The notes under the pieces are model-generated. The model saw only the letters and a program-made list of their open reading frames with translations, had not been told where the DNA came from and ran no database searches. A program made the translations under genes and the position numbers. Below, piece after piece: positions 26,025 to 58,205 of a DNA stretch of 64,000 nt. Location: positions 50,344,001 through 50,408,000 of the forward strand of contig OX597836.1 in NCBI GenBank assembly GCA_951406725.2, written 5' to 3'. Each line of letters begins with the position of its first letter. The stretch's first letter is position 1. The stretch is from Octopus vulgaris (lineage: Eukaryota).

Positions 26025-26400
26025 TACACTTCTATATTTAAGAGATGAGGAATTATGTACATTATTTTCATTATTTACAATTGACGGATATTTGTCCTAA
26101 GCAGGCCGAGTGCAGATATGAGCAGCATATGGGAACCGGTATTAAGGAAGGATAGGAGAATATTAGATTTATAAGCCCTAAAATTCATTCCATAATTGCC
26201 CATGGGCATATGGCGTAGTGGTTAAGAGTGTGGGCTACTAACCCCAAGATTCCGAGTTCGATTCGAAAAATACCTTAGGAATGAGAACCCAGGTTCGAAA
26301 TTTCTCCAAGACACCTGATGAAGGCTGGAGGGTATATATCAGCCGAAACGTTGTGTTAACAACAAACAAGATGAGGACAAATATCCGTCAAATGTAAATA

Positions 26401-26403
<3 letters not shown>
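26025..26403 (+). mobile_element. non-autonomous Penelope-like/SINE-like element: tRNA-derived head, hammerhead and inverted terminal copy
   Basis: A box TGGCGTAGTGG (26211) and B box GAGTTCGATTC (26254); hammerhead at 26310-26357; 30-bp inverted repeat 26069-26098 / 26374-26403. Confidence 0.65.
26310..26357 (+). ncRNA. minimal type I hammerhead ribozyme motif (PLE type)
   Basis: gacac-CTGATGA-a-ggctg(gagggtatatat)cagcc-GAAA-CG-TT^-gtgtt; palindromic AACGTT stem III; extra A after A9. Confidence 0.65.
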
Positions 26404-26737: not shown

Positions 26738-26868
26738 CTGCTGCAGAATATGTGTCTACCAACAATAAGCAATATGTCCAACATCACGGTCCCTCTCGTG
26801 AACATCACTTTTGATTTACTTAAACGCATTCAACAGGACACAAAGTTTCGAGAGGAACTGGAATCAAA
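26738..26868 (+). CDS. SSX2IP: SSX2IP homologue, coding exon 2
   Basis: ttgtcag|LLQNMCLPTISNMSNITVPLVNITFDLLKRIQQDTKFREELES(K)|gtaagt; phase 0 to 2. Confidence 0.88.
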
Positions 26869-27394
26869 GTAAGTAAACAATTGCTTTGGGCTGTTATTTA
26901 ACCCAAGGTCAGTGTTTCTCAAATGACCAGTGCAGATATCCACAGCTCCTCTCTTCCAGATATAATCATCCCTCTTCTAGCTGAGGATTACATTGTTTAT
27001 CATTTTGGGGGGCACTTCAGTAGCTTAGACGTTTTGTACATCACCCCCACCCCCCTGTAAGTTCTGGTGGTGACTAAGTGGGGTTGGGCATGGTTGGCTC
27101 ACACAGAACAAGAGTTGTTGTTCCTTTGTACTTGGCATTAGTGTTCTGTATGTCCCTAGCGCAGTCTTTGATCTTTGTCAGGTTACCTGATATCATTGCT
27201 GTGGCGCTCAGTTTTGTTCTTTATTATTTTTTGCCTAAACTTTTCTAACAGAATGTTGTTATCAGTCTGAATATGTTTGAGGCCTTATTCGAATTGGGCA
27301 ACGAGCTGCGTTTTATGATGGAGAATATACCTCACTTGTTGACAGTGTGTATACGCCTGGGTCAGCTCACAGCGCCACCTACCTAGACTGTGAG

Positions 27395-48319: not shown

Positions 48320-48575
48320 GTCTTACAGCTGTTTCTAGGATATTCCATCACTGGAGATGAGAAAGACATAGATTAATGAAATGATGACGTAGAGGAATAA
48401 GGAGAAGAAAAAAGACGCATAAAAGTTCACAGTTCAACTTTCTGATCTTATAGGATTTACGCAGGATTGCACCTAAGTCCAGGTGCAATCCTTTGTTGTC
48501 ATTTCATTAATCTATATCCTTCTCTATTTCCCTATTTGTCTCTGATGATGGGATATCCCAGAAACAGATGTTTGC
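48320..48575. mobile_element. fold-back Penelope-like remnant with two opposite-strand hammerhead motifs
   Basis: On +: gtct-CTGATGA(48542)-tggg atat ccca-GAAA-cagatg. On -: ctccagtga-tgga atat ccta-GAAA-cagctg-TA-agac. Shared arm tcatttcattaatctat; central 12-bp hairpin 48463-48492. Confidence 0.6.
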
Positions 48576-49900: not shown

Positions 49901-51299
49901 CTGAGAACAGAAAAGAAAAATAATATTAATTTGGGATGAACAGAATTGTTGGAATAAGCAGAGGCAAATAACAAAGACCAGAGCTTAAATGATACACAAC
50001 CATCCTCATTTGTTAACACTGGTCTTCCATGGTGAGAAGCCAGAGAACTGCACCAGACTCCAATTGTCTATGTTGGCATGGCTTCTACAGATGGATGCCC
50101 TTCCAGATGCCAACCACTTTACACTTTTCATGTAGGACTAATACTGAATGTTGGAGGAATGGCTGCGCTCAATGCGTGACAATGTTACGATTCAACTCAT
50201 TGTTTGTTAATCACATTAAACGTCCACCGTTGCATGATGACACGCAACAGTGGGAGAGTCTGAGGCGGGCACATCAATAAGGAGAGATTGAACATGGTAC
50301 TCGTTGATTTCAGCATGTTTTAGCATTTGGCAATAGATGATGTGACAAGCATTCAGCTTCATTATGCATACTGCACTGATGAGATACATCTTAGATAGTG
50401 TGACACCGTGTGTTACTGAAACATGTGTAACAGATGAAATAAAGGGGTACCAACTTGAAGCCCATGCTCTTTTCTCTTTCTCTCTCTCATCTATACACAT
50501 GCATACCATCATCATCATCATCACTATGACCCCCTTTCCATGGTTGCACGGCTCAGGAGTTTATCAAAGCAGGTTTTTCTATGGCTGGATGCTCTTCCTG
50601 TTGCCAACCCTCACCTGTTTCCAAATAAGGTTGTATTTTCTCATTGCCGGACAGGTTTCCACAGAATATTGGAAATGAATGACAGGGACACTCGCGTACG
50701 ACTGTCACATGATGTCAAGGCAAGATGACATGAACACAAACATATATAGTCAAATATATAAGGAAAGGCTTCTTCTGATTTCCATCCAGCAAATTCACTA
50801 AAGGCTTTAATCGGCCTAGAGCCGTAGTTGAAGACACTTACCCTGAATGCCACAGAGTGGAATTGAACCTAAACCCATAGGGTTAGAAAGCAAACCACAC
50901 AGCCACGTTTGTATCTACACACACACACACACACACACACTCACACACACACTCGTGTGTGTATCACTGAAACAGTTATTTAAGAGAAATAACTGAGTGT
51001 TGTCAGTGGTATTTGAACATCAAAGACGAGGAATAATGATGTATTAAATACTATAGAAGATAAATTCTTGATAGAATAAATCCACTTTTAGAGAAAGTTA
51101 ATTATTTGGTGGCAATGGAGGCAAAATCCTCAGAACCAGGAACTCTTCAAATTTAACATGGCATTAAGGAAAAGATTGTCTGGAGACAAGAGGACGTCAG
51201 GAGACATGTTTCTGCCTCAATAAATGTCATCAACACAGCAGTTGTCTTAACCTTGTTTCCAGCCGAATGAAATGTTTAGTGTAGATGATTGGTTTGGTG

Positions 51300-58132: not shown

Positions 58133-58205
58133 TGCCGAAACCCGGGATTGAACCAGGGACCTTTAGATCTTCAGTCTAACGCTCTCCCAACTGAGCTATT
58201 TCGGC
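58133..58205 (-). tRNA. tRNA-Phe (GAA)
   Basis: GCCGAAATAGCTCAGTTGGGAGAGCGTTAGACTGAAGATCTAAAGGTCCCTGGTTCAATCCCGGGTTTCGGCA, 73 nt, full cloverleaf; T5 terminator at 58111-58115. Confidence 0.98.

Follow-up and report, generated by a model that had tools for sequence, protein, structure and literature searches.

The pseudo-LTRs (pLTRs) of a Penelope/Poseidon-type retroelement family of Octopus vulgaris carry a tRNA-derived module as their first part, and this module, which resembles tRNA-Arg(ACG), is followed by a minimal hammerhead ribozyme. The family is real and unusual, and its arrangement is apparently undescribed. Taken as a whole, the data are best explained if the tRNA-Arg-derived module of the terminal repeat is the Pol III promoter of the element, a reading that we favor with moderate confidence on sequence grounds. 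It should be noted that transcription of Penelope-like elements (PLEs) and the formation of their pLTRs are poorly known. If a tRNA promoter marks the 5' end of the RNA, thousands of copies map the sites at which reverse transcription starts and stops, and such a family supports internal priming as the origin of solo repeats.

The window copy

We analyzed a window of 64,000 nucleotides and searched the genome of the same species (2.8 Gb, 227 contigs). The earlier note on this window had described the locus as a candidate non-autonomous SINE-retrozyme, in which a tRNA-Arg-derived head is fused to a hammerhead ribozyme with a Penelope-style inverted end. The parts listed in Table 1 bear out this anatomy. 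The inverted arms (26069-26098 and 26374-26403) share 97% identity over 30 nt, and the upstream arm continues to the family "tail". The link to Penelope is also correct, and is reinforced by a segment that the note had overlooked, which encodes the last 25 residues of a Penelope ORF; this C-terminus matches that of another copy, L216. The classification as a non-autonomous unit does not hold for the window copy: because ORF sequence lies upstream of the head, it is almost certainly a 5'-truncated copy of an autonomous Penelope/Poseidon-type element, an ordinary, dead intronic insertion.

Table 1. Features of the window copy and of the adjacent host exon (positions of the window)
Feature	Position	Strand	Remarks
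Inverted 5' arm	26025..26098	-	3' end of the element, including the ~30-nt Penelope "tail"; tail absent from the direct arm
End of the RT/GIY-YIG ORF	26097..26174	+	Last 25 codons (LSRPSADMSSIWEPVLRKDRRILDL) and stop
Short 3' UTR	26175..26203	+	
Palindrome TGCCCATGGGCA	26197-26208		Spans the border of 3' UTR and head
tRNA-Arg(ACG)-like head	26204..26264	+	A box 26211-26221; B box 26254-26264
Linker	26265..26309	+	ATG at 26281, candidate start codon
Minimal type I hammerhead	26310..26357	+	Predicted cut after U26352
3' part of the pLTR, to the short 3' end (..TGTAAATAATG)	26358..26403	+	Adjoins a (GT)n tract
Downstream host exon (ADIP/SSX2IP-like, weak)	26738..26869	+	Intron before this exon holds the insert, in sense

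The window copy has lost the 3' end of its head and the (AAT)n tract; the deletion is private to this copy and accounts for the short spacing between head and hammerhead. In copies that run on into the N-terminal domain, the ATG of the linker is in frame with the ORF. No target site duplication (TSD) was found for the window copy. The assignment of the host gene as SSX2IP, with the insert in sense in an intron, survived in part: the downstream exon has a weak Pfam ADIP match (E 0.0017, below the curated cut-off), whereas the upstream host exon gave no Pfam ADIP match.

The tRNA-like head

A gap-free alignment can be made between the head and tRNA-Arg(ACG) of the same genome, with 40/62 identical positions in the window copy and 45/73 in a fuller head copy. 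The control scores are lower: shuffled sequences give a mean of 18.5/73 (maximum 33), and the tRNA-Phe(GAA) gene of the window (58133-58205, minus strand, an ARAGORN call) gives 30/62. The head was compared with these two tRNA types only, Arg and Phe, and derivation from tRNA-Arg is likely by this comparison. Conservation at the A and B box positions exceeds that of the other head positions only moderately (18/23 vs 27/50). Neither ARAGORN nor Rfam called the head a tRNA, and ARAGORN called none in 60 loci; the head is too decayed for either. The genome also holds a tandem array of tRNA-Arg(ACG) genes (G000:C2:211.89-211.91 Mb, L231-L251), many of them at a spacing of ~206 nt, with a few TCG anticodon variants.

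The autonomous element

The layout of the family is head-(AAT)n-linker-hammerhead-tail-ORF (~840 aa)-UTR-head-hammerhead-tail. We selected 30 loci on RT-thumb DNA alone, of which L038 and L041 look like mutual duplicates. Endonuclease, UTR and head are continuous in 24/30 loci, or in 24/25 having the endonuclease end; five of the remaining loci break before this end, and one has the end without the head. The head is thus a constant component of the terminal repeat. The bridge from endonuclease to head is also present in contigs of sequencing runs from four other organism labels. The earlier note had considered that head and hammerhead might be independent nested insertions; the recurrence of the ORF-UTR-head junction in the 24 loci shows that this is not the case, and, as the note had expected, head and ribozyme travel together, with linker, ribozyme or tail downstream in 72/90 heads.

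Near-full-length copy L212 (~2.8 kb) has a partial head, linker and hammerhead 5' of the ORF and a head 3' of it. The column-majority sequence of 29 copies contains a single stop-free frame of 841 codons, which runs through the hammerhead. Its RVT_1 match has an E of 3e-6, below the cut-off, and the related sequences are RT proteins, 566-1,994 aa in length. One of these (P0003, 53% identical) also reads through the residues that correspond to the hammerhead region, and gave a Pfam GIY-YIG match that is only weak (E 0.23). In the translation of L216, the endonuclease has CSC between MYSI and YKG, then two His downstream, in line with the CCHH expected of a Penelope/Poseidon GIY-YIG endonuclease, and no CX2-5CxxC zinc finger is seen in the RT-endonuclease linker. 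According to PMC8557442, this linker zinc finger is present in Neptune and reduced in Nematis; by the criterion given there, an endonuclease with CxC and His and a linker without the zinc finger point to Penelope/Poseidon.

Several further features of the ORF region can be mentioned. We considered an intron in the tail region but discarded it, as the frame is open without one. A 9-nt unit of the tail (TGTAAATAA) is present in 1-3 copies in many loci, always with the reading frame kept. In five loci (L064, L069, L070, L073 and L074), internal deletions join the N-terminal part of the ORF straight to head or linker.

Ends of the copies

A 29-mer of the head has 1,155 exact matches in the genome; the first 90 by position (contigs C1-C2) were examined, L119 and L120 among them being the two arms of one unit. 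Endonuclease sequence lies upstream of 11 heads, and an inverted arm is present in 59. The 5' ends of 53/90 fall at -8..+3 of the first base of the tRNA, the mode being -7 (18/90), which is the most frequent 5' end among short copies and corresponds to 26197 in the window copy. As for the others, 21 have their start within the head (+4..+17), and 12 were assigned to a UTR-carrying class.

Genome-wide counts of exact, CpG-free 20-mers change at the same place: 723 for the endonuclease, 1,013 for the UTR, 5,148 for the head and 7,980 for the linker, i.e., a fivefold step within ~70 nt just upstream of the head, vs 1.4- to 1.6-fold on either side. From these counts, at ~5.5% divergence, we estimate ~16,000 heads in the genome. 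Of 30 hammerhead-anchored loci (three pairs being twin arms), none extends as far as the endonuclease, and the head lies upstream in 17. Very many short head-to-tail copies exist, with Penelope insertion scars, a point in favor of the earlier note; repeat annotation may list them as SINEs.

There are two 3' ends ~32 nt apart, ~50 and 82 nt downstream of the ribozyme cut, and 38/41 two-armed units combine a long end with a short one. The ribozyme cut itself was considered as the boundary and rejected for 3' ends because of these distances; starts within a few bases of the cut were seen only in L066 and L067 among 30 loci. TSD-like direct repeats of at least 8 nt flank 29/41 two-armed units, whereas mismatched pairs give 0.83. 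Such unequal ends together with target duplications are described as a PLE signature (PMC3846280, PMC8557442).

Proposed mechanism and transcription

We propose the following model. A tRNA retrocopy, or a simple SINE with an (AAT)n tail, would have landed ~30 nt past the stop codon and become fixed there. The RNA would start ~6-7 nt upstream of the first base of the tRNA, and internal priming by the RT would take place at the tail, in the manner of the anole element in vitro; the anole enzyme is reported to prime at two sites bounding its tail and to need ORF sequence beyond them (PMC11167929). Two outcomes are expected: (i) when primed at the upstream repeat, cDNA synthesis would run off at the RNA 5' end after ~250 nt, giving abundant short (solo head-to-tail) copies; (ii) when primed at the downstream repeat, it would yield truncated copies with ORF sequence, that of the window included. 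The inverted arm would result from head-to-head joining of a second cDNA. For the hammerhead, which overlaps the first codons, cutting is predicted to require a dimer or the help of protein; the hammerhead does not define the insert ends. If short copies arise by run-off from the upstream repeat, they should have the same sequence and age as long copies, and the pile-up of 5' ends should map the transcription start.

Exact matches to the tail-ORF junction, 60 in all, provide a view of the repeat upstream of the ORF: 7 begin in the head, 51 further downstream, and 2/60 (2/9 of the ORF-upstream repeats reaching the head) extend into UTR or endonuclease. Some template RNA therefore starts upstream of the head. 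Several inverted arms contain N-terminal ORF sequence, which indicates that templates run past the tail.

We consider it probable that the RNA starts at the head. A start 6-7 nt ahead of a tRNA body in which both the A and the B box are intact is consistent with Pol III. Use of Pol III by the element is somewhat less assured, although we lean toward it. TTTT runs are absent from the sense strand of the 2,635 majority columns, where 2.9 are expected on average by codon permutation (P 0.026) and 5.1 by a composition-weighted calculation (P 0.003). Individual copies contain 24 such runs in 48,674 nt, none of them common to more than two copies. This argument is only suggestive, since GGGG is also absent from the majority sequence. 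In two unrelated metagenome relatives TTTT occurs at the expected frequency, but these are T-richer (32-33% vs 22%). A second Penelope family of the same genome was sought as a control for T runs and abandoned: the fetched loci belong to the same family, and L254 gave no alignment on the strand examined.

A bolder version, in which Pol III makes the entire RNA of 2.6-2.8 kb from a captured tRNA promoter, the ORF being purged of terminators, the element thus being a LINE and its own SINE in one, is doubtful in our view. If true, it would contradict the usual split between autonomous elements read by Pol II and short parasites read by Pol III. Pol III RNA has neither cap nor poly(A), and its translation is therefore doubtful.

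RNA-seq of a related organism showed both orientations about equally and no common start, as expected if host transcripts dominate. In a search of sequencing runs for the element, none of the listed holders is recorded as RNA. RNA reads over L057:2100-2630 contain many opposite-strand joints and differences rich in A>G/T>C. Editing was rejected as the reason for this excess, because many of the same changes occur in contig runs, the thresholds being different in the two data sets. Head-to-head units in transcripts could be substrates of dsRNA editing, an effect not separable from differences between copies.

The pile-up might be explained in another way, which we regard as rather unlikely: the head would have no function of its own and merely be carried along, as an old SINE or a retrocopy of a tRNA within the 3' UTR of an element transcribed by Pol II, and fold-back or annealing at the palindrome TGCCCACGGGCA would bring about the accumulation of 5' ends. 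The palindrome does coincide with the pile-up, snap-back junctions at ATATGCCC are common, and in L066 fold-back occurred at a different palindrome, GTTAAC. In addition, pLTR 5' ends of rotifer Penelope are described as carrying palindromes, with TATA/Inr-like motifs (PMC3846280), and D. virilis Penelope as having an internal, TATA-less, LINE-like promoter (PMC2377424). However, the pile-up at -8..+3 is equally strong without visible fold-back: it comprises 14/19 copies with no detectable inverted arm and 24/40 with a different arm, compared to 15/19 with fold-back, although some of the former keep a few snap-back bases. Moreover, the boundary coincides with the first base of the tRNA, both boxes are intact, and there is no T4 run.

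Short and ORF-linked copies

Under a further alternative, the short copies constitute an independent non-autonomous SINE or retrozyme, made of the head and a Penelope end, with its own masters and mobilized in trans. Short copies are indeed about fivefold more numerous than ORF-linked copies and bear Penelope scars, and transcription of a short RNA could begin at any 3' repeat that is intact. Moreover, ~6/90 heads have no Penelope sequence downstream and no inverted arm or UTR upstream, and a minor, free head-(AAT)n SINE may exist. Conversely, comparison of 37 ORF-linked with 55 short copies revealed common variants and similar mismatch (5.8% vs 5.4%), i.e., neither diagnostic variants nor an age difference; the significant differences are confined to the 29-mer used for selection or to two CpG sites. 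Within this small sample, short and ORF-linked copies appear as one family, and no separate master lineage is seen. The head lies within an autonomous element, and the window copy has the ORF upstream of it. The tandem organization for which the earlier note recommended a check was not found: in 120 sampled loci the copies are dispersed, single or head-to-head, with head-to-tail repeats only occasional (L094, L118), and there are no retrozyme-like tandem arrays. The minimal template described for the anole enzyme extends past the priming sites into the ORF (PMC11167929), a part that the short copies lack. We thus find the independent SINE or retrozyme quite improbable.

Chance nesting of an unrelated SINE beside a Penelope fragment at this locus only can practically be dismissed: other SINE-like ends do join the (AAT)n-linker in L010, L030, L076 and L085, but the junction recurs among the RT-thumb loci and under the four other organism labels. 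The repeat joined in these four loci is a different, abundant one that ends in (AAT)n, which suggests microhomology joins or a shared type of tail.

Relation to known elements

Octopus tRNA-derived SINEs were reportedly described by Ohshima and Okada in 1994; PMC3531059 and PMC4758252 refer to the octopus SINE paper as a citation only. The family shares most of its organization with Penelope/Poseidon PLEs, namely Poseidon_Ac of anole (PMC11167929), Pen2a of Adineta (PMC3846280) and Penelope of D. virilis (PMC2377424). As described in these sources, common features are (i) a single ORF of ~840 aa with RT and GIY-YIG; (ii) a pLTR over the ORF start, with a minimal hammerhead in it; (iii) an inverted 5' arm, a one-sided tail of 30-40 nt and target duplications. 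In the anole element, the ORF starts inside the ribozyme (PMC11167929), like the frame through the hammerhead in the octopus family. The distinction is in the beginning of the octopus pLTR, with its tRNA-derived A/B-box module and (AAT)n tract, whereas the promoters described for those PLEs are LINE-like and TATA-less, or TATA/Inr-like.

The Schistosoma repeats Sm-alpha and Sj-alpha (PMC2770079) are similarly tRNA-related, SINE-like, hammerhead-carrying and present in high copy number. However, they resemble tRNA-Gln-derived repeats and are described there as SINE-like, not as part of an RT element; the octopus unit is the terminal repeat of an autonomous element, and its ribozyme is of the minimal PLE type. 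A Pol III promoter derived from a small RNA is also found in the terminal repeats of the TRIMp3 retroelements Helenus, Ajax and Cassandra, for which an analogous origin, by insertion of a SINE into the repeat, has been proposed (PMC10886601). TRIMp3 are short, non-autonomous LTR elements, whereas the octopus module resides in an autonomous PLE; according to the argument in PMC10886601, autonomous partners of TRIMp3 must use Pol II.

Animal non-LTR retrozymes (PMC7761336; bioRxiv 10.64898/2026.07.22.740005) are likewise short, hammerhead-bearing, pLTR-related units, presumably mobilized by PLEs. By definition they are tandemly repeated, each unit having its ribozyme, in contrast to the dispersed, head-to-head copies of the octopus family. 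Neither a tRNA nor a promoter is mentioned in the accessible text of bioRxiv 10.64898/2026.07.22.740005. Octopus Penelope families are annotated in PMC13282606, ribozymes not being mentioned in its accessible part. Among the titles and abstracts returned by literature searches, none describes a PLE with a tRNA promoter; family lists in supplements may already include the element.

The hammerhead ribozyme

The minimal hammerhead proposed in the earlier note was confirmed in the window copy as GACAC/CUGAUGA-A/GGCUG..CAGCC/GAAACGUU/GUGUU. Its core has an extra base after A9, the pair G10.1-C11.1 and palindromic 15.2/16.2, and self-complementary ACGU replaces stem III. These features agree with the descriptor of minimal hammerheads in PMC4209133, where cleavage by this type is described as weak and restricted to multimers. 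The core is conserved across copies, N7 being the sole core site with two common bases, CpG decay aside. The Rfam hammerhead models gave no match to the window hammerhead, and the hammerhead shape was not obtained by folding of the monomer (z -1.17). RNA reads contain one minor back-joint (2629 to 2568), which lies wholly downstream of the cut site.

The motif CTGATGA..GAAAC occurs 4 times in the window vs 0.5 expected. The three additional hammerhead-like motifs (595-620, 48542-48565 and 50376-50422), that at 48542 having a clean stem, may come from other PLE families. In L283, a distant metagenome relative of Penelope in which no tRNA-like head is evident by eye, a very similar minimal hammerhead follows the ORF (L283:2387-2420).
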